The position numbers were made by a program, and so were the translations under genes. Shown in pieces: positions 17,154 through 52,100 of a DNA stretch of 64,000 nucleotides. Under the pieces are notes generated by a model that worked only from the letters and a program-made list of their open reading frames with translations, was not told the DNA's origin and did not search any database. The DNA is taken from assembly GCA_035084275.1 (NCBI GenBank), contig CM068760.1:62001-126000 (forward strand), given 5' to 3'. How positions within the stretch are numbered: position 1 is the stretch's first letter; each line of letters starts with the position of its first letter. The DNA comes from Hydrolagus colliei (lineage: Eukaryota).

Positions 17154-27439
<10,286 letters not shown>

Positions 27440-31086: not shown

Positions 31087-31338
31087 GGAGTCCAGTAGCT
31101 CAGTGGTCGGAGCACTTGACTTGCAAGCGAGAGACCTGGGTTCGATTCCCCACAGGTCGAAACCTTGGACAAGTTTCCTTACTCAATGCCTATTGGGTCA
31201 CCTCAATGCACGACTGTTTGTGGGACGCTGCTGTGCGCAATTGGCCGCCGTGTTTCAGCCACAAAGATCCAGTCAAGTCACTTTACAGTATATTCTGTGA
31301 AGCGCTTTGGGACGTCTAGAAGATGTGAAAAGCGCTAT
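31087..31338 (+). mobile_element. tRNA-derived SINE with its tail split by a CR1 insertion (tail resumes ~32072)
   Basis: A box TAGCTCAGTGG, B box GGTTCGATTCC; ...GAAAAGCGCTAT | CR1 | ATCAAATGCAAG. Confidence 0.85.
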
Positions 31339-32071
31339 TTTAAATGGTGTGAAGGAACAGAGAGACCTGGGGATTTGTGTTAGTGACTCGTTGAAGGTGG
31401 CAGGACAGGTAGACAAGGCTGTTAAGAAGGCATATGGGATACTAGGCTTTATAAATAGGGATATAGAGTACAAAAGTCAGGAAGTGCTGACTAACCTCTA
31501 TAGGACTTTGGTGAGGCCTCAGCTGGAATACTGTGTTCAATTCTGGTCACCACACTACAGAAAGGATGTGAAGGCATTGGAAAGGGTGCAGCGAAGATTT
31601 ACTAGGATGGTGCCAGGATTGAGGGACTTCAGCTATGGGGAGAGGCTAGATAGGCTAGGGTTATTCTCTCTGGAGCAGAGAAGATTGAGGGGAGACCTAA
31701 TCGAGGTTTATAAGATCATGAGGGGTTTCGACAGGGCAAATAGAGAAAAACTATTTCCACTCGTGGGTGAATCTGTGACTCGTGGTCACAGATTTAAAAT
31801 AGTTTCAAGGCGAAGTAGAGGGGAGCTGAGGAGAAATGTTTTGACTCAGCGAGTTGTTCGAATCTGGAATGCATTGCCTGAAAAGGTGGTGGAGGCTGAT
31901 TCGATAACAACTTTTAAAAGGGAATTAGATCTTTATTTAGGGAGAACAGGTCTATTAGGCTATGGGGAGCGGGCAGGGCAGTGGGATTAAATCGCTCTTT
32001 TCAAAGAGCCGGCACAGACTAGATGGGCCGAATGGCCTCCTTTTGTGCCGTAAAATTCTATGAATCTATGA
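31339..32071 (+). mobile_element. Young CR1-type LINE 3' fragment with uninterrupted ORF2 C-terminus
   Basis: ORF to 31990: QRDLGI...LYRTLVRPQLEYCVQFWSP...LERVQRRFTRM...RRLRGDLIEVYKI...TRGH...WNALP; tail GGCCGAATGGCCTCC...TTCTATGAATCTATG. Confidence 0.93.
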
Positions 32072-33926
32072 ATCAAATGCAAGAGGGGTTTCTCATCGCC
32101 CTCCGGTGGTGACAGGAGTGCTACGTCAAGCTAAGACATGATACAGTATTGGGGATAATAATCCTTACATTTGATGCATCGCCTTGTTTCAGAGTTGCGT
32201 GTATTGACAGTGCCAGTCAAGCCATGACCGGGGGATCGGTGCGAGTCGAGCGAAGGGGTCGGCTGGTGGACTGGGGAGTGAGGACGGGAGGTGCCAGAGT
32301 GGGGAAGGATTTGAACACAAAACCAGACAAACTAAAGGAAATAGGTGTCAGAGACAGATGTGCTTGTAAGGTCGTTGTCAAATAACTAACGCAGTCAGAA
32401 TGCGGAGGTGGCTGGCACCAGGAAATGCAATGCTTTGCACAAACTAACACAGCTATTGTACTGTTAGTTGTTATTCAACAGCAAGAAAACCTGATATCTG
32501 ACTCATCACATCAAAGGCTTTGTTTGTGCAGCAGTGAGGGGAGTCTCTGATCTGCAAGCGTGAAATGCTGCCCGGGGTGAAAAAATCTGTTGGCAATTCT
32601 GAATAAACTCTTCTCCAATCCGGAGTTCTGCTATAAAACATCACAAAAATTAAACTAATAAACATTGAACCAAATATTAAATCAGAGGGACTGGAAAATT
32701 AACGATAACTGCATTGACTGCCAATAAATTGTCTAGTTGAACCAATATAAAGGCGGCTGCAAATAATTACAAATCCCACCTACTTCTAAGTACTGTATAA
32801 AAATAATTCTAATTAAATGTTCTCTTCACTGCATATTTCAACCACTGGTGAATAATTAAACTTCATTGCTGTTGGCTTTCATAGAAACTTTTTTGTAGCT
32901 GATAAATTATATTTAATGAAACTTTTATAATCCTAGAAATAATTTCTGCTACACAAATAATTAATGCACTTCTACAACCAATATTTTTCCACAATTTGTG
33001 GTATGATTGCTACATATATTGAGTGCTCAGATTCTCTAAGTATGGAATATTTTCAGAGTGTATTTGGTATAATTTTTACTCTCCGCAGTTAATCAAAAAT
33101 ACAGTAAAACTTGCCTTATCTTTATAAATCGTACAATTGCCTAACTCATTACATTTACCAGAGTCTTATTTGATTTTTTACCAAAATCTACTCAGATTTC
33201 ACGGCACTAATCCTATTTTGTAAAGCAAAAAATCTCCACTCATAACCCCTCAAACGAACTTACAAGCTGATTGAATTGTGGGAAATGAAGTTCTGAGCCA
33301 GCAGCAAATGAGCTAACGCAATTACTTTGCCTAAATCGTATTGAATATTACAGTTCCAAATGATACGACAAGTGAGTTTGACTGCAGTGAGAACAACTGC
33401 TATAACCAGAGTTTTTACAGGCGAGCTATCGTGAACGGCTTTAGGAAAGGATGTTGTTGTGGTGTGAAGAAAGGATCTGAAGGGAAGATTATTTCAAACA
33501 TGCACATTTGCAACATTGATCCAGAATGTTTATTTGCTTTGCAGCCACGTTAATATCATAATATCATAGGCTGGTGCTACACAAATAAATCTAGGATGTT
33601 GTTGTAGATTTATGTTCAGAGTATCAGTGTGTAACAACAATCACAGCCAAGTTGCAAGCTTTGATGCCAAAGCAATGAAATCTCTCAAAACTAGAAACAT
33701 CAATTATTTCTTTTAAATTGGCATTTCTTCATTCACGTTAAAGTCTGTTGATTTTAAATTTTAAAGTGTTACAATTCCACTTTTTTAGAAAAAGAAAATA
33801 AGTTAGTCATTTGAATCAAGCACGCATTAAATAAAATATTTGTGATCAGTCAGTATGTATTTTTCTGGATTAGTAATTTGTATGGATTAGTAATTGTTTA
33901 ACAAGCAGGGATTTATATTTCTTCAA

Positions 33927-34082
33927 TTACTTGATCAGAGCTTTCATGGTGCTTATCGATGATCCTCTGTATCCCGTCCCAAAGTGGTTCCAATGATTCA
34001 GGTAATGGAAGAGCTGATAAAGTTTAAAACGTTTTTCAATTCCTGGAGCCTTGGGAAGTTTTTGATGGTACGCAGTGGAAGA
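33927..34082 (-). pseudogene. FN3KRP: FN3KRP last-exon remnant ([50 protein letters not shown])
   Basis: Only about 52 C-terminal codons present; no convincing in-frame acceptor and no LLHGDLWxGN/DPA/GHSEYEL sequence seen upstream. Confidence 0.7.
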
Positions 34083-37000
34083 ACCTCGAGGATTCTCTCC
34101 CCAAATCCCTTTGGAAAAGTACTTTTCATTCCTCACCAAAACCCTCTCAAAAACATATTTCTCGCACCATGCGTTTCATTTGCAGCCTGCTAGGTTGAGT
34201 ATTTGCTTTATTTCAGTGGGCACTTTGCCCACAAAATGCAGTCAATGCACTTTACAGTATATTCTGTGAATCAGTAATGACTTTTGAATAATTTATTGCC
34301 GACCACAGCAATTTAATGGTACAGATGGACCATAATATTGTTCACCAGTAATTGTCTGATACATTCTGGGCAGGCCTACAAATTTTATCTTCATGTGACA
34401 GACAGATTTAATGATCTTTAAATACCAGGGGCTCTCTAACCGGGTGTGTTTCTCAATGAATGGATCAAGGGCAGGATCCAATCCATGATAAATTCACACC
34501 AACAATCTCTTTCAACGGGTGACCTGAAAGGCTCACTTCTTAACAGTTCATTACGTTCTAGGAAGAAAATGAATGGGTTCCTGGCATGGAAAAGATTGAG
34601 AAACAGAAACAAATACTATTCTAACTCAATCTTGTCATATGAATACAGCAGTTTCATAATGGGTTGAGAAATTTGATTACTTCAAAACGCATCATATAAC
34701 AAAGAATAAAGAGTACTCCTTCTGTCACATAACTGATAATCGGATAGCCTGTAACAACTATTAGATAAGATAGCACCATAATCATGGGACATTATTGGGA
34801 ATTCCACATTGTAATCACTTGCCCCGCAAGGCTATGTTTTGTTTATTCAAAGGTACTTCTGTCTAGATCAATACCTGGAGCTTTGACCAGAGCTCCCTGC
34901 ATTCACGGTCACTGTATTCCTTCTCAATCATGTTCAACTGGGTTTCAATCCGTTGACGAGCAAAGAACGTTACCCAGTCACTCTGCCAGTCATTCACCTG
35001 GCAGAAGAAAGATGAAGATTTTAAACAAATCAGTCACAGAAAATAGTCAACGAATAATGCAGTTTGTTGTGAAAGCATCTTACGAAAGTACACTTGATGT
35101 TTTTGTGAGGTAGCATCAAAGATAGAGTCCTGTAGCTTTAAAAAAAATTGGTCACTTCAATCCACGACTGCTTATGGAAGACGACTGCGTTCAATTGTCT
35201 GCTGCATTTCGCTCACAAAATATATAGTCAATTCACTTAACAGTATATTCTGTGAAGCACTTAGAGTTGTCTCCGAGACTTGATAAGGCATTACATAAAA
35301 CGTAAGTATTATTATTATTGCTGCTGTGACAATTCAATTTCAGAGTATAATCACCAGGGGAACAGAACTATATGCATTTGCTACAATTTTATTTCTATGT
35401 ACATAGTTTAAAAAATTCCAATGTGTAGAAATAAGAGAACTATCAAACTTCAGGATGAAGAGAAAATACTTCCAGAAAAATATTGTTAAAAAAGAGGGAG
35501 GAAAGCAGACTGGAAGTTCAAAGCCACGGCGGGCAAGTTCAGGAAAAACACTAAGAAGTTTTGTTCAGGATACACAAAGTTGACAAAGTTGTCAAAGCAG
35601 GTGATAGACTGTTAAAACCAGCTTGATGTTGTTCATGGGAAGAAAATAGAGTTGATATTATAATAATCCTTGCATTAAGAAAGGATTTGAATAAGTATAT
35701 TTGTTACCGTGTGAAAAGCTAATCTATCCCTCGCCTATCACTGTTTAAATACAGTATTTTATAGCAATCATGACATTGCTATTATTTCTTAAAATGCTTT
35801 CAACTTTCTAAATGACATATTCTGCCCTGAATGCTAGAACATGTTTTCAGTCTTCATGTTTGATCTCAGTTTCCCTCTGAACTTCTGCTATCAATAGGAA
35901 GATCAAATGAAACCCAAAGCCAAACAGCTGCAGGAATAAAACTCATCGTTTTTGTGTGGCTTGGCTGCAGATTTCATTTTGAACATTATTGAATTTGACG
36001 TTTTGAGGTAGTTAGTGCATTAATTGGAAAGTAAAACCTGGATGATCCTTCTATCAGAGCTTCGCTCAGTCTGAATCCAACATTCCACAAACCTGAGGCA
36101 CCAAATCCTCTCTCCCAAAGGAGCTGATATTCTGTCTGGAGGGGCATCTGATTCTTCTAAACCTCATGAAAACCACTGGCATAAAAAAATCTGAAAATTC
36201 AAAGCATCTTCACATTGTGTTTAACGATCTCCAAGACATCTGCACTCTCAGCAATATGCCTTCTGATCCTACCTAAGACTTTTTAAAAAAAACATATTGA
36301 ATAGTCATCACATTTCTTCCCTTTTCTATAAATGTCCTTATGTTTGATGAAACAGTTAGAAGTTATTTGAACAAAAGAAAATTCCACAAAATATTTTTTG
36401 GAACTGCAAGCTAATTTCAACATAAGTATTATATTTAGTGAATAGTTCAAGGATTGTTTTTGCAAATGGCTGGTTGGGTGGAGGGACTTTGTGAATACAA
36501 AGTCTCAAACCTGTGTGTTACTTTTATTATCCTATATATATATATATACTGTTTGTATCTACAGAATATAAATATCCTATGTTTATCAACAACAACAAAA
36601 TTAGATTTATACAATGCCTTTCACATTGGGAGGACTTCCTATATATACAATATACTATAATTATGTCAACACACCTAATAATAATCCCTCAAACAACAAT
36701 AACTCAGCACAATGTACATAAGGTATGTTCTGTTCTGTGTGGCTTAATTTTACAACACACAGTGCTTTTACCCATTAGACTCAATAATTGTTCTGCCCAC
36801 ATACGATTTAATGAATATGAACTTCAGGTAGAGAGCTCCAAATTGTAATTTCCTTATTTGTAATTCAATTCTTCAGCAATACGATTTCCCTTGAAAATCT
36901 GCCACTGTTTAAAAAGTAACCGTATCCCTGTGTTTGATTTGAACATCCTGTCCCCTCTCGTTTCTTACGTATTCGTGTTTGTTCCATCGGACAATTTGTC

Positions 37001-40000
37001 AATGCCTCAATAATTTGACAGGGGATGCATACTATCTCCAGCAATGTACACGAGGCATCAGCAGCCTACCTGAGGAAGGTAACCACAGCAGGTAACGACA
37101 TCAAACCCAAATTTATCGATGTACCGGATTTCAGACTGTCCTGCTCCTTTGCCTACCTCGGTTGGAGAGAGAGAGATAATTTTATATCGAAAGCTTTACT
37201 GGCAAAGCTCTGTTGCTATAGTCGTCCAACATTGTTTTTGAAAGTCATATCGTGTACCATCAGGTGCTGCTAAAGGTTTATTTTAATACCAGATTATTTC
37301 ATCTTTACTTGAACAATTCAGGTACATTCTAAAACAATTGTCTAGCGCCTTGTGATTTGCGCAGGAATGTGCGAACAGCATGTCTGAGCAAACTCCAGCT
37401 TCAATTCGTTTTCAGCAGTGATGCAGCCTTTAAAAATGTTCAAATTTCTATATGTGAAAACAATGCTGGGATTTTCCAATTAAATGCATGTTCTAAAATT
37501 TAAGAAACCACAACTTAATATGTGGTTGTGGTTTCCCCATTTCTCAGTCGACTGTTAATATGTTTGTTTTGGTAGGTAAATGTCCCTGGCTTTTCTGGGG
37601 AACCAAAGAAGGAAAATTGGGCACAATAAGTACACTTAGATTTAGATTTTCAGAAAACTAAATGTCCACTACCCAGTTGTGTTCTAAGCAAAGTCATGTT
37701 ACAGCAAGAAGTGTTATAACGAGGTTCCCCGTATTTAGCTGCTGATACCATTGAACGGTACACAATAATTTGCATAGCTTGCTATTGTAAAGCTCTGAAG
37801 TTAGCAGAAACATAAATACTCTACCAACAGTCTGTGCCTCTTTCTTTTGGCTTTCCCTAAGCTTTGCATTGGACAGATGCAGATCTGCCAGTTTCTCTCC
37901 CAAGTCAGGCATGTATCTAGAAGAAAACAATCAGAAGGGACATAACAGTACGTATTTGCAAAGTATTTGAAATGATACAGCTATGAAGAAGTCATTTGGG
38001 AGAGTAATTTCTTGAGGCTAAACCTCAACATGGTAAGAATGGAAGCAAAGGTTGTGTAGGGCAAGATGAAGGGGTCTGAAGGTGAGACTGAAGATCCTGA
38101 ATTTGATTTGCTGGAGCATGGGGAGGATAGGCTCCCGGAGGCTGGTGCAGGAGAGGATATAAGCTTTAGAGATGTGGATAGGGAAAGGATAAAGGTGAGA
38201 GAAAGCTGAGCGAGTAAGAGCATGGATATGGGGTTTGAAGGGAAGTCAAACAGGTCACCAAGGTTCCACACTGGCTCCATGAGCTGGAGAGCCGAACCAC
38301 ACAGATTGATGTTGGCGGGAGCTAAGCAGGAAAGCTTTGGTCTATGTTTAACTGAAGAAACTTAGGGCTGGGAGAAAAAAACTGTTAAAAAGACAAAGTG
38401 GAGATACTAGAATTGATGGGAGTGAAACCAGGATAGATAGGAGAACTGCGAATATGGAGCAGAGAAGGATAGTGGTCAACAGTGTTGAATGCAACAGAGA
38501 TTGAGGAGACAAAGAGAGCCCTGGTCAGAAATGGAGAGAATGCAAGAAGCAACTTTGACCAGGGGAGTCTCTGTGCTGTGAACTGGAGAAGCTAATGCAT
38601 GGAGTGCTAGGAAAGAGTGAGTTATTTGTGTTCAAACCCATGAAAAAAAACAAGCAATTAAAAAAAACAGGGTTTTTATCCCATCATATTTCTAAGCAAT
38701 GATTTGATGAGGCATTTTGTTTTTTATACTTACTTGCTAAGGCTGGTCATATCTAAATACTCCATCACTAGCATTGATCCACCATCAGGGAGGTCAATCA
38801 CTTTAATTGGCTTCGGCACCTTCACTGTCTTGGTTTTCAAGATTGCATCCAAACTTGCTAATTCACCATCAAACATTCTTCTGGCCTGTTGGGAAACATA
38901 TCGAGAGTGTGATGGTCAACAGTGTAAAAGGAGAGGTTAGTAATGTTTAGTAGGAATGTGTTAATACAAGCTACCAGTGAAACCAAGGCAGTTATAACAT
39001 TTTTAAATGAATTTGATGAATAAATGAGGTTTTGAAGGGTTTGATTAGAGGAGCTTGGATGAGGTAGACCCAATGGACCAAATGGGCTGAAATTTCCACA
39101 TATATCACCTCTTTTAAATCACTCTTAACCCCCCTGCTCCCATCCAGGAAAGCATAGATCTAACATCATTGTGAAGTCTATTTGTGCTGCTCTAAGACTA
39201 GCTGACGCGCAGGTTTAGAAATCTGACCCGCTGACCCCCGATCAACCTGTCCATTCCCTCCCCACGCGTTCCAAAGCGTAGGGGCAGAGAGGCTGAAAGT
39301 CTGGCCACCTATGGTAGGGCAGGTCAGAGGCGTGGTGAGACATGGAGCAGGCCAGAGTCTGCTGAACAGAGGGAGCGGACAAGTTGATAGGGGGTCCCAA
39401 GATGTGAAAGACGCTATACAAATGTAATTTGGTTATTGTTGTACTGCAAAATGGACTGACGGGGTATTTTTTTTAGTGTCCATAACACGCAGCCGATTGC
39501 ACACGGCAGTGTTCCACAAACAAGCGTGGTCTAAATGACCAAATTATTTTGGTTTCAAAAAAACATTTTTTTAAAGGGTTATTACTAAACATTATAAACT
39601 CTAAATAAACCCATAAGACACTGTGCATTGTGCTTAATAATACCAACTTCTGAATGATACAACAATGTAAGCATGATTTGGTGAGAGTTTAGATCTTGTT
39701 TCACTGACACAGCTACTCTGTGTTAGCTACATAAATTATGTGCAACACTGGCAACATTCTGTGTGACGAGATGTTGAGTGACATATTAACTGTAGAATTA
39801 CATGACTTCCTGCAGTTACAGAATGTTCTGGGTATTTATAGTTCTGATAAATGAATTTACAATTAGAAGCCAAGAATAACTGCGTGCGACAGCGACAAGC
39901 AGCTTAAAGTGCTTACTTGGTATTCGCAACTATTTGTGTAATGCTTGTGACTATAATATAGAACACGGTGCATACGTATGTAGAAAACAGAAGACAGGGA

Positions 40001-41981
40001 AATGTGCTGAACATCATGTATATGGAATAAAGAGCTACTCAGGCCACTTTTCCCAGTTAACAGATGGCATACAATTTGCCCCATCGTGAACTTTTCCCAA
40101 CCACTTCACCAGGAGGGAAGCAATCAAGAAATGGTATATATCCAAGATGATAAATCCCTGTGAAATTTCTTCTCAACCCTGAAAAATCTATTAACTCCAA
40201 AATATTAACAGTCTACATCCCTCAGGTAACTCAGCTACGCGTTTTGCAATGACAGGAACCAGCTTCTGCATTTGTCTTCACTGCATTAATTGTTATCTTT
40301 ACATATACACACTGCCTACTTTTTGATTACTACTACTTTCAATACAATTTATAGCTGTTGCATTACCAGATTCTAGTATTGTTTGTTTTTGATGCAAATA
40401 CAAAAGAGTAAAAAAAGAACATTTATATTTTTTAAAAAGCACAATGAAAATTTCTTTCAAATTAGAGGAACCCTGATTGTGTGCATTTTTTACAGTACAT
40501 CTTCGCCCAACTCCACTGGCTCCCCATCAGCCAAAGGATCCAATTAAAGATCATAGACCTCACATTTAAAGCCCTCCACAACCTTGCCCCATCCTACATC
40601 TGTGATCTCCTATCCCCTTACCAACCTGCCAGCCCCCTCCGCTCAGCAGGCCTGCTCCACGTCCCCCAACCCACCACCCCACCATTGGTGGGCGAGCCTT
40701 CAGCCCCCAACCTCTGGGGAATCCGAAGCTCGGGTCTGAAACATTAACTGTCTGTGCAAGTATTTACAAGTGTAATTTTGCTGTTGTTGTTGTATATTTT
40801 GTGAAGCACTTCAAGGCACCTCAACATTATCAGCACCACATCAAACACAAGGATTATTATTCTTATGTATCAACATTCAACACCTCGGATGTCATCCCAA
40901 CGTGAAAGGTGCCGTACAAATGTTTTTGAATTGTTTCTGATCTACACAAGTTATTATTATTCATCAATGATAAATTACCTGTGGTGGGGAAGGGGTGTGG
41001 GTAGAGGAGAGGGAAAGAATGCGGGGGGGGGGGGAAGTGAGTGACAGAAGAGAAAGCAGAGAGGACATAAGTATGTGTGGCTGCGGGGAGAGTAAGTGTG
41101 TTTGGGGGTGGAGTAAGAGTGTGTGTATGCGGTGGGAGAGACTTTGTGTGTCTAGAGGGGGGAAAGAGTAAGTGTGTGGTTCAATTCAAGATCCTGGTCC
41201 TCACCTTTGTAGCCCCCCTTGACTTTGCCCCACTCTACTTCTGCGCACCTCCTCCTAACCCCCTGCCCACCTATTCGCTCCCTCCTCAGCCTGCTCTCGT
41301 CTCCGCACCACCCGCCCCATCGTCAGCGGGCGAGCCTTCGGCCAATCTCTGGGACTCCCGCCCGCAATCCCTCCACCTCACCCCTTCCCTCGCCTGCCTC
41401 AGAACCCTCCTCTTCGATGGTCCCATCTCCTCCTCGCCCCCCCACCCTCCCCTTTGCCTGCTCCGGTCTGAAACACTGTCTGTCCACATTGCCTTGAGAC
41501 ATCTCCCCTATACAGGTGTAATGTTGTTTTCTGTGTAGTGGTCGGGGGGACAGCAAATGTGTGTGTGGGGGGGGGGGGGGGGGGGAGTGTACGTTGGGGG
41601 AGGGGGGGGTGGGCTGTAAGAGTTAAGGGGGGTAAGAGTATGTGTGTGGGGGGAGAATGTGTGGAGTTGCAGAATGTGTGGGGCGCAGTGTGTGAGGGGT
41701 GGTGTGAGTGTGTGCGTGTGTGTGTGGGGGGGAGTGTGTGCGTGTGTGTGTGGGGGGGGGGGGGGGGGGAGTGTGTGCGTGAGGGAGTGTGTGTGTCGGG
41801 GGGGCAGGGTTACAAACCAATGAACAGGAACCTCATTCACCTGGCTTTTGTGATTGACTTTGACAAACACCTGCCCCGAGTCGGTCTGGTAGCCCTGGCC
41901 TTGGCTGATGCAGCCGCCGCCTCCGTGGCCGATCGGCCGCAGCTCCGCCGTGTGCAGCTCCCGCCTCAGCGCGGCCTCCAT
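33927..41981 (-). CDS. FN3KRP: Fructosamine-3-kinase-related protein (ketosamine-3-kinase); exons 1-5 intact, last exon 5'-truncated (possible pseudogene or assembly defect)
   Basis: Exons of 141,152,92,83,123 nt with [52 protein letters not shown]; C-terminal [19 protein letters not shown]; head-to-head with RAB40B as in human. Confidence 0.85.
34875..34997 (-). CDS. FN3KRP: FN3KRP exon 5 ([41 protein letters not shown])
   Basis: 123 nt; CTTCTGCCAG acceptor, CAG|GTATTG donor. Confidence 0.9.
37070..37152 (-). CDS. FN3KRP: FN3KRP exon 4 ([27 protein letters not shown])
   Basis: 83 nt; TAG acceptor, CAG|GTAGGC donor. Confidence 0.9.
37825..37916 (-). CDS. FN3KRP: FN3KRP exon 3 ([30 protein letters not shown])
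   Basis: 92 nt; TTTTCTTCTAG acceptor, TTG|GTAGAG donor. Confidence 0.88.
38000..38610 (-). mobile_element. Degenerate L2 LINE internal fragment
   Basis: Purine-rich plus strand with GGTCAACAGTGTTGAATGCAACAGAGATTGAGGAG (minus-strand [21 protein letters not shown]-like RT remnant). Confidence 0.55.
38734..38885 (-). CDS. FN3KRP: FN3KRP exon 2 ([50 protein letters not shown])
   Basis: 152 nt; AACAG acceptor, CAA|GTAAGT donor. Confidence 0.92.
40495..40792 (+). mobile_element. L2 LINE 3' fragment
   Basis: [34 protein letters not shown]; (TTG)n tail. Confidence 0.8.
41175..41530 (+). mobile_element. L2 LINE 3' fragment
   Basis: [10 protein letters not shown]...FAPLY; LWDS; LLFDG; L2-like tail. 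Confidence 0.7.
41545..41810. repeat. G/GT-rich low-complexity tract in FN3KRP intron 1
   Basis: Long G runs interleaved with (GT)n. Confidence 0.85.
41841..41981 (-). CDS. FN3KRP: FN3KRP exon 1 ([47 protein letters not shown])
   Basis: ATG 41981; 141 nt; CAG|GTGAAT donor. Confidence 0.93.
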
Positions 41982-43047
41982 CACCCCCCTCACCCTCACC
42001 CCCCGGTCACCGCAGCCCAACTGCCCTCAGCTCAGGTCACCTCACTACACACACGCTGAGATCAGTAAACACACATTTCTTTTCTATTCACACAAAAGTG
42101 AAGACTAATGTCCCGCCTGTTAGAGGCTGTGACTGTAACTTTGATCCGAAGCGACTCCGGGTGGCGGGAGGGGGGGGGGAGTGGGAGTGGGGGGGGAGGC
42201 TTTTATTTTCAAAAAAATCGAGCGCTTGGAATGACCGAGAACAAGCCGCGGTGGGTGCCGGGAGCTGGAGTCCTCACTCGCGGCGGGTGCCGCTGTCAGA
42301 CTGGAAGACAGAACTACATCTCCCACAATGCATGCATCGCTCTGAATGGGTGGTGGGGAGCGCGGGCGGGATGTAAACAATCCAGCGCCAGCACGACGCT
42401 CGATGGTGGGGAAGGAGCAATTGATTGACGGTTCAGATATCCAATCAGCGATGAGGCCTGGGGTGAAAGGTGGAGTATTGAATGATTGATGGGGAGATTG
42501 TCCAATTGGCTGCTGCACTCTGGCACACTGCAGTCCGCCCCCCTGCAGCTCTGTCCAATGGAAGAGAGAAGGGGCGGGCCCTGAGCTGGAGCTGCGTTCG
42601 CGGGGCGGCCTCGAAGAGAGAGACGAAGACTGTGGAGGAGGGTTAGAGAGAGAGAGTGAGGGAGGCAGGGAGACCGGGGAGGGGGGAAGCGACTGTGAAA
42701 TGGCTTCTTGTTTTTTTTAACAAACCAAATTAGCTTCGAACATACCCGTTGGCGGGAGGGAGAGAGAGAGAGAGAGAGAGATCGTGTTGGAAAGTCTCCA
42801 TGTAGTTGCTGTCTCGGAGGCTTTTTTTAAATTTCTCGGGCGGCGATAAGAGAGAAGTCTTTTCTGAGGAGAATGTGTGAGGAGGGTTTGGGCCGGAGCT
42901 GATTGATTGATTGATGATCGCGGTGTCTGTCAGTCGGACGCGGGACTTGCTGTAACTTGTTTGATGAATATTTACCTGTTCAACGAGAAGCATCGCCTGG
43001 CGCCTGGAGCCGGAGCTGGGAGATGGCGGCCCGCAGCCCCTGAGAGG
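41982..43047. promoter_or_regulatory. CpG-island bidirectional promoter and 5' UTRs of FN3KRP/RAB40B
   Basis: Divergent genes 1.07 kb apart; CCAAT at ~42441, 42503, 42556; GC boxes ~42535, 42571. Confidence 0.85.
42313..42333 (+). promoter_or_regulatory. ZNF143/THAP11 (SBS) motif
   Basis: ACTACATCTCCCACAATGCAT fits the ACTACAnnTCCCAnAATGCA consensus enriched in bidirectional promoters. Confidence 0.75.
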
Positions 43048-43189
43048 ATGAGTAACAAAGGCAGCCCGGTGAAGGCTTACGATTTCCTGCTGAAATTCCT
43101 GCTGGTTGGGGACAGCGATGTGGGTAAAGGCGAGATCCTGGCCAGTCTCCAGGATGGAGCTACCGAATCCCCCTATGGCTATAACATGG
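43048..43189 (+). CDS. RAB40B: RAB40B exon 1
   Basis: [31 protein letters not shown]...; 142 nt; TGG|GTGAGT donor. Confidence 0.94.
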
Positions 43190-49100: not shown

Positions 49101-52100
49101 TCTATTTGAAATTCATCTAGAGTGTCTGATATTTGTTTGTTTTACTCATTTACCTAAAATTACTTAAAGTTCCCAGCATTTGAATTAGGATTTTCATAAT
49201 TCCCTAATCTGTATGGTATTTTTTGTGTCAATAAAATAGTAATTGGAAAGTTACTAAAATAAGATTTTTTGAGAGAAGAACATATAATTCTGGTGATGGC
49301 TTATTTTTGCTATTCAAGTTCAAGTCTGCAACAAAATACAGTTCATATTTTACAGTGTATCCTGTGAAGCACTTTGAGACCACTCTATAATGTGATAAGA
49401 TGCTATATGAAATGCAACAATTTTTATTATTATGTTAATACATAGGAACATACATAGGAATTAGGAGCGGGAGTAGGCCATTCAGCCAATCAAACCTGCC
49501 CTGCCATTCAATAAGATCATGGCCAATCTTCTAATCTAACTCCATCTGCCCGCCGTATCCCTATATCCCCCTACCTATAAGAAATCTATTAATTTCAGTC
49601 TTGAATATGTTCAAGGACTGAGCATCTACAGCCTTTTGGGGTAGAGAATTCCATAAATTCACTACCCACTGAGTGAAGAAGTTTCCTCAACTCTGTTCAA
49701 AAAGGCTGGCCCTTAATCTTAGACTGTGGCCTCTAGTTATAGATTCTCCACCAGGGGAAACAGTCTCCCATTGCACTCTGTCATGCTCCTTAAACATTTT
49801 ACAGGTTTCTATAAGATCACCTCTAATTATTGTATATTCTAAAGTTTGCTCAACCTATCCTCATAGCTCAACCCCGTCATCCCAGGAATCAACCTTGTGA
49901 ATTTATGCTGCACCACCTCTGAAGTGAACACATCCTTTCTTAAATAAGGAGCCCCAAACTGCACACAATACACTAGGTGCGGTCTCACTAAGGCCCTATA
50001 TAATTGCAGCAAGACTTCCCTACTCGTATATTCTAACCCTTTTGCAATGAATGCCAACATGCCATTAGCCTTCCTAGTTGCTTGCTGTACCTGCATACTA
50101 AGTTTTTGCGAATGTTGTACAAGGATACCCAAATCCCTCTGAACATTAATACTATCTAGTCTCTCCCCCTCTCGAAAATAATCTGCATTTCTGTTTCTAG
50201 TACCTCGATGAATAATTTCACTCTTCCCCACATTATATTCCACATGCCACCTTCTTGCCCACCTAACCTGTCTATATCCCATCGCATTCTTTTTGTGTCA
50301 TCCTTGCAGCTTACTTTGCACCTAGCTTTGTATCATCCACAAATTTAGATATTTTAAGTTCTACGTCTTAATATGGTGTACCCAGGCGAGATAAGGGCAT
50401 TGCAGCTTAATGAGCTAGAAATTATGAATAAAGTAAAAATTCCAATGACACTGAGACTGCTTGTGTAGAAACTGACTGATGTGGCTCACGGTTCACCTTT
50501 GGTGTACTAGGATATGCTGACAGTGTTGCTGAGCTGGGGAAGTGATGACAACCATATACAAGTCTGGGTTTGACAACACTGGTCCAAACTATAGTTTCTC
50601 AAAGTGCTCATTTGTTTGTACCAAAAGTAATGTTTTTAACTGTGCCAAACCATCCAGGAATTTGAGCTGTGTAAAAACAGTGTTTATTAAAAAAAAATTA
50701 AATTGTCAATTCTCATCAAAGCTAACCAAGGCTACAGTAGATTTTAATTTCAGTTTGTCTTCTTTTTTGCAATTTGGTGCTTTAGAAATCTGATTATGGG
50801 ATTTTTAAGCCAGTTTATGTTTACATGAGCTTGTTTATCACTGTGATATTGTACTGGTAAATATGCAGTCCAACACACTGGAGGCACTGGCCTCAGTGTC
50901 AGGACAGATGGCTTTTCCATAACAACAGTAACTTGTCCTGACAGGATTTGGAGGAGGTCTGATGTCGATAATTATCACTACTGATTTGGAACCAGACTGC
51001 AGTGATGCTGTAAACAAGCCCGTTTATCAGTCGTAGATATATGCCATTATTATGTGGCATTTTGTTCTGTGTTCAATTCTGGGCACCACACTTTAGGAAG
51101 GATTTCAAGTCATTGGAGAAAGTACAATGGAGATTTACCAGGATAGTACCAGGAATGATAGACTTCAGTTACGAGGATGGTTAGAAAAATTAGGATTCTA
51201 TTCCTTGGAGCGGTTATGAGGAGATTTAAGGGGGGTGTTTCAAAATTATGGTCAGATTCGATAGGGAGAAACTGTTTTTACTGCGTGGTGAGTCGGTAAC
51301 CAGACAAAACAGTTTTAAAATAGTTACCAAAAGATCTAAAGGGGAGAATTAGTTTCACATAACGAGTTGCTAAAATCTGTAATACAGGATTAGATACAAG
51401 GATTATTTTTAACTGGGTTCTTCAAAAGTGCAGATTCATATTAAGCCACTTTTAAATGTTTTAAGTACTGTATTGTTACACTCATACATAACAACAATAT
51501 CTTGGTATTTACAGATATATTGTATAAACTTTAAATACAGCATATTAAAAATAAATTCTGGCTCAGTGAGTGCTAGGAATACAATCTTAAACGATTTATT
51601 TGGTCGGTTAGGCATCCGTTTCATGTTGTCTAAATTAAATTTCCTATGGTACTATCTGTTTATGCACTTTATCATTTTTCTTTACATGTTGTATGTCTTT
51701 GTGCACTGATTTGAGTCTTGGAATCCTATTCCACAGATCCATGAAAACGTGCTTTGAAAGCCCAAGTGTACCTTAGGCATTTTTGATGTTCAAGCTAAGA
51801 ATGCTTTTTGATAAGGTTACGTTAAGGTTATGTTTCTTATCTTTATTAGTCTCTAATGCATTGTACCATCTACACCTGAAGATAGATGACCCAAGGCCTT
51901 CACCGTTGCTGCTCTGGTACCAGCCACAAGGAAGTGTTGAAATTGATCTTCTCTGGGAAACCAACTGATGCTGCCGCCCCACAAGGCACAGCTGGAATTG
52001 CTGTCAGTGTGGGTGTCGAGCTACGTGGTGGTGGTGTTTGAATGTAATATGGCACGATAGAGCTATAAATAATGGTGGTAATTATTTAAGTGCCAGAGAA

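Follow-up and report, generated by a model that had tools for sequence, protein, structure and literature searches.

The chimaera assembly carries a 315-bp deletion allele of FN3KRP that is most likely heterozygous in the sequenced animal

The window, a stretch of 64,000 nucleotides of Hydrolagus colliei DNA (assembly GCA_035084275.1, contig CM068760.1, positions 62,001 to 126,000), contains an FN3KRP gene from which the catalytic part is missing. The evidence argues strongly that the assembly represents a short allele, predicted to be kinase-inactive, and that a full-length form exists beside it in the animal, which is most likely a germline heterozygote. The assembler would have output the short haplotype as the sole reference path. 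Ribulosamine-type deglycation would come from the full-length allele and the animal would be the carrier of a recessive null, recessiveness being expected from the usual behaviour of enzyme nulls. The parts of the gene, in window positions, are:

41841..41981, minus strand: FN3KRP coding exon 1, 141 bp, with the ATG start and the P-loop with Cys24 and Lys41
38734..38885, minus strand: FN3KRP exon 2, 152 bp
37825..37916, minus strand: FN3KRP exon 3, 92 bp
37070..37152, minus strand: FN3KRP exon 4, 83 bp
34875..34997, minus strand: FN3KRP exon 5, 123 bp, final residue 197, phase 0 donor
34077..34874, minus strand: leftover of FN3KRP intron 5, 798 bp, predicted to measure 924 bp in the full-length allele
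33927..34076, minus strand: FN3KRP exon 6 remnant, residues 261-309 and the TAA stop
33529..33534, minus strand: AATAAA, candidate polyadenylation signal ~390 bp past the FN3KRP stop, of putative function

In agreement with a preliminary description of this DNA, exons 1 to 5 are open and have the sizes it gave; joined, they comprise 591 bases or 197 codons with zero stops, and the splice sites are canonical (GT donors, and AG acceptors for exons 2-5). The N-lobe ATP-binding residues Cys24, Ile25, Lys41 and Glu55 are all kept in exons 1-2. When compared with homologues of 309 residues, the window gene has residues 1-197 and 261-309, while exactly 63 (198-260) are absent, so that the described loss of ~60 codons is real and its size can now be given precisely. 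The remnant is intact, as had been noted, but smaller than the ~52 codons attributed to it: its homology covers 49 codons (34076-33930), the three preceding ones being intron sequence that crosses the junction. The described in-frame TGA at 34178-34176 is present in the sequence.

With residues 198-260, the window allele has lost Asp217, Trp219 and Asn222 of the catalytic loop as well as Asp234. None of the frames of the window contains HGDLW, FDPA or a true GHSE-type motif, in line with the reported absence of LLHGDLWxGN, FDPA and GHSEYEL. This absence is not due to chance, as the HGD-W-GN and DP motifs occur in 80/80 full-length homologues from the 120 stored (GH-E in 77/80). A protein search with the remnant gave 129 proteins at E <= 0.001 among 148 candidates, of which 120 were stored; among the matches listed, each one with a name is a ketosamine-3-kinase or a fructosamine-3-kinase, and the rest are unnamed or hypothetical. 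The C-terminus of human FN3K (PDB 9CX8 series, 8UE1) matches the remnant with E ~5e-19, whereas the equivalents of its catalytic Asp217, Trp219, Asn222 and Asp234 fall in the deleted stretch. Judged by its residues, the window allele is predicted to be a null that encodes no active PF03881 member.

The missing residues were also sought elsewhere. A mini-exon or displaced exon within the window was rejected: tblastn with residues 198-260 at E up to 100 gave scattered chance matches only, among the matches listed (which are complete for the queries P0002 and P0011 only), for example 11 residues in intron 3 with E 2.6. The assembly (1.0 Gb, 532 contigs) was searched with the family profile PF03881, which gave three matches from four candidates, all inside the FN3KRP gene; these are three exons with 37.9, 29.1 and 28.3 bits at a cut-off of 22.4. 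The whole Callorhinchus milii protein P0006 gave six matches from nine candidates, one per FN3KRP exon, and this search, serving as a control, recovered exons down to 28 codons. With the missing 63-residue piece as the query, zero candidates were obtained from the assembly. A second FN3K-family locus was not found in the assembly with either the profile or P0006, which extends the earlier claim of no second paralogue from the window to the whole assembly.

Eleven public sequencing runs contain all or part of the stretch, and seven of them (X1, X3-X8) were compared, with X2, X9, X10 and X11 left out. The run data are assembled contigs, not raw reads; the library kind is unrecorded, and none is listed as RNA. 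Four runs belong to sample S1, which may be the assembly source, while X5 stems from another sample (S2) and another study with the same organism label. Run X11, labelled as a fish gut metagenome, contains a share of 0.19 of the stretch's words and carries no evidential weight.

In X3 and X4, both from S1, the flank contigs terminate at positions 34076 and 34074 and are linked by two further contigs. The first is 57 bp long and identical to window 34047-34103; the other has 372 bp, is thus 315 bp longer, and its terminal 30s match 34047-34076 and 34074-34103. In X3 the depths are 12.7 for the 57-bp and 11 for the 372-bp contig, with flanks of 22.2 and 23.9, and in X4 they are 10 and 23.5, with flanks of 32.7 and 32.2. 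In both runs the branch depths add up to the flank depth, which is the pattern of two alleles at one locus. In X1, likewise from S1, the 57-bp contig has a depth of 9 between flanks of 28, and bin depths suggest ~19.7 for the long branch.

The S2 run X5 has the longer form only, in a single unbranched contig of 2425 bp (1921 + 312 + 192) at depth 41.3, and the intron 5 leftover is identical there, no other letters being listed. In X6 (organism B) the contig continues for 184 letters beyond 34076, and no junction contig can be accommodated within the bin depth. In X8, from a relative, the contigs to either side of the junction have loose ends. Translated manually on the gene strand, the 30 letters behind 34076 yield MFGGFNSSFY, 9/10 of which agree with residues 251-260 of P0006. 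One X7 contig has its end at 34076 but its unmatched letters at the far side, which is unexplained and was left uncounted. The short form was seen in one of the five samples compared, where X7 and X8, at depths of 3-7, have too little coverage to rule out a short allele, and it is known only from S1, so that it is not independent of the assembly if S1 is its source. The full-length form of this organism is known by its length and place, the inner 312 letters not being printed for S1 and S2; from these and the relative's 30 letters we infer that the frame of the long allele is open and its acceptor intact.

The position of the gap suggests how it arose. The two features concerned are:

34074..34076, minus strand: deletion junction with a 3-bp microhomology, ACT, the Thr261 codon; 315 bp missing
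34220..34275, no strand assigned: dispersed short repeat fragment, SINE-like, in both alleles, a bystander at ~145 bp from the junction

As 315 = 63 x 3 + 126, the missing piece probably consists of 189 bp of coding sequence (residues 198-260) and the 126 bp at the end of intron 5 with the acceptor. The ACT at 34076-34074 on the gene strand fits both sides of the junction, and the letters ahead of both ACT copies are alike, with GTTCTTCC in the intron and GTTCCTTCTAT in the relative's exon (X8). Microhomology-mediated end joining and replication slippage are processes that leave a short microhomology with a loose adjoining match. The deletion probably arose at the two ACT copies through such end joining or through template slippage. 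The repeat, described earlier as a SINE fragment at ~34225-34270, is real, and SINE is presumably the right class name. It was rejected as the cause of the deletion, since it lies off the breakpoint and occurs in both forms.

As the short allele lacks the last acceptor, retention of intron 5 or the use of a cryptic acceptor is predicted. Retention would add three residues before a stop. The best-placed alternative site is:

34581..34605, minus strand: best candidate cryptic acceptor, in phase, use predicted

Splicing to this acceptor, before 34580, would lead to a stop after nine codons, and to one before 34557 to a stop after five residues; both have pyrimidine tracts of 15/19, compared with 13-16 in the true acceptors. 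A weaker acceptor before 34013, inside the remnant, would join the last 28 residues in frame. The preliminary description had seen no good in-phase acceptor; given the strong pyrimidine-tract AG before 34580 and the weaker one before 34013 this was too strict, but it holds in that no alternative acceptor restores the catalytic loop. No product of the short allele would contain Asp217, Trp219, Asn222 or Asp234; all would be devoid of kinase activity and would probably be unstable. In human FN3K, the variants D217N and D234N had no kinase activity, according to the accessible text of PMC11754801.

The germline heterozygote has to be weighed against readings in which the short form is of a different nature. 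It might be a somatic deletion, carried by a large cell lineage of a mosaic animal rather than by a germline allele. The short-form share of 0.30 in X4 and ~0.31 in X1, and 0.37 when pooled over the three runs (rough binomial p = 0.023, for runs that may not be independent of each other), lies below one half, and the form occurs in a single sample of the five. However, the share in X3 is 0.54, the 57-bp contig draws on few reads, and each of the three junction depths is inside the simulated 95% range for a 50:50 heterozygote, two of them near its low edge, which makes mosaicism unlikely. The gap might also be an artefact of the assembly or library in an animal with the full-length gene only, a view akin to the assembly collapse considered earlier and favoured by the confinement of the short form to runs of the possible source sample. 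An assembler error would not appear in the reads, yet the exact junction forms a contig of its own in all three S1 runs compared (depths 9, 12.7 and 10) and the long branch has only the remaining depth; we regard an artefact as highly improbable. Finally, the species or lineage could have lost FN3KRP activity, leaving a fixed pseudogene, which was the headline of the preliminary description and fits an assembly with the broken form only and no second family member found. As the long form is present in S1 and is the sole form in S2, labelled as the same organism, and relatives have sequence at the gap, a fixed loss is barely credible. Of the very recent, disabling deletion that had been proposed, the deletion event stands and the disabling effect is restricted to one allele, with the full-length form in the same sample, so that on these data deglycation is not disabled in the animal or the species; a heterozygous deletion, which the description had itself named as an outcome that would overturn its reading, is what the runs show.

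Two further readings accept the short allele and differ in what it does. A stop past the last exon junction can evade nonsense-mediated decay, which favours a lasting product, and exons 1-5 retain Cys24, Ile25, Lys41 and Glu55. The short allele could then yield a stable, kinase-dead N-terminal protein which pairs with the intact enzyme through an N-lobe domain swap and modifies how active it is; human FN3K dimerises by domain swapping through the N-lobe and Cys24, as stated in the available part of PMC11754801. The same text, however, describes human FN3K as mainly monomeric under reducing conditions. The product would moreover end within the C-lobe, lacking 112 of 309 residues, and would probably be unfolded, and there is no sign that the short allele is common or selected, so that we consider this reading very unlikely. 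The related suggestion that a truncated non-catalytic product has evolved as a feature in its own right finds no support, given the full-length form in S1 and its sole presence in S2. It is also distinctly unlikely that a null allele of the only deglycating kinase segregates in the wild, in such a way that homozygotes are viable or that a stable, kinase-dead N-terminal product dampens the activity of the intact enzyme via the Cys24 swap. If true, such a segregating null would amount to a naturally occurring vertebrate knockout of protein deglycation, with no second copy of the gene. The heterozygous null allele with a probably unstable product remains our preferred explanation.

The rest of the gene resembles those of other cartilaginous fishes. 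The closest relative is Callorhinchus milii P0006 (PF03881), which is identical to the window at 170/197 positions of exons 1-5 and 43/49 of the remnant, compared with 136-146/197 for exons 1-5 in sharks. The window allele is set apart from P0006 by the absence of residues 198-260 and of the last splice acceptor, and P0006 in turn has Gly24 where the window and 46/51 homologues have the redox-active Cys24. In a tree of 17 rows, hand-chosen from the 120 stored homologues, the window is sister to Callorhinchus (100/100) within the chondrichthyan group (92/97). The protein-tree branch of the window is 0.061 long versus 0.074 for Callorhinchus, consistent with no sped-up change in exons 1-5 and the remnant. 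A decay of the remnant after the deletion was rejected: its four coding differences to relatives, three of which alter a residue, are also found in the full-length X5 and are therefore species differences. Two of the residues in the remnant, Ile273 and Phe277 (window 34040-34026, minus strand), were each found in 0/51 homologues of 309 residues, 49/51 having Phe273; X5 has the same letters at both, which makes them changes of the species, and codon 277 is the only one that differs in the relatives X6-X8. Two FN3KRP-like proteins of Heptranchias, P0004 and P0028, pair in the tree (96/94) and likely reflect a recent duplication.

As to the type of kinase, the accessible text of a preprint (bioRxiv 10.1101/2025.07.30.667714) presents FN3K as a fructosamine-active paralogue that arose after fishes and ties five positions, including Q179H, M187L and H293N, to fructosamine activity. 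On our putative mapping of its numbering, the window has the FN3KRP-type residues Q171, M179 and H284 at three of these five positions, while the chinchilla FN3K has H, L and N; L179 is also present in shark and gar proteins, and the key position 244 lies inside the deleted part. By its visible residues and the tree, the window gene is of the FN3KRP/KT3K type and not FN3K, and ribulosamine specificity is predicted for it.

Head to head with FN3KRP and ~1.07 kb apart from it (41981-43048), a gene for a Rab-type GTPase with a SOCS box begins at 43048; Pfam identified Ras and SOCS box domains in its later exons. We take this Rab40-like neighbour to be RAB40B, and human RAB40B and FN3KRP presumably have the same head-to-head arrangement. 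The region 41981-43048 is CpG-rich, with three CCAAT motifs at ~42443, 42503 and 42556, and FN3KRP and the Rab40-like gene likely share a two-way promoter. At 19695-21315, the plus strand has two exons of a gene with a JmjC domain (Pfam JmjC), which reads like JMJD6. An open frame at 25699-26040 on the minus strand has an acidic stretch and no Pfam match; the JmjC gene and FN3KRP may be separated by another gene, of which this frame would be an exon. Three other frames (31301-31990, plus; 49839-50297, minus; 462-1214, plus) presumably correspond to ends of LINE-type retrotransposon proteins; a Pfam scan of two of the three gave no match.

Heterozygous loss-of-function structural variants that enter single-haplotype references as apparent gene losses are a known class. 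The FN3KRP case is alike in being a small, exon-removing deletion with microhomology for which the reads hold both forms. It differs from the false gene losses covered in the accessible text of PMC9516821, which are caused by assembly errors, whereas the short FN3KRP form is real DNA of the animal. A literature search found no paper on FN3KRP in chimaera; the short allele may be unreported, although it is of an ordinary kind.

Annotation or gene-loss screens on this assembly would wrongly call FN3KRP truncated or lost in the chimaera. Rather than a species-level gene loss, a new truncated protein or an assembly error, the window contains an otherwise normal FN3KRP gene with a 315-bp deletion, most likely heterozygous, that is predicted to abolish function. 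Every outbred vertebrate genome carries recessive null alleles, and FN3K-deficient mice are reportedly viable. Biologically, the finding amounts to one recessive null allele in one animal. If the short allele were common, a homozygote would lack this deglycation repair route, because the genome has a single FN3K-family gene.
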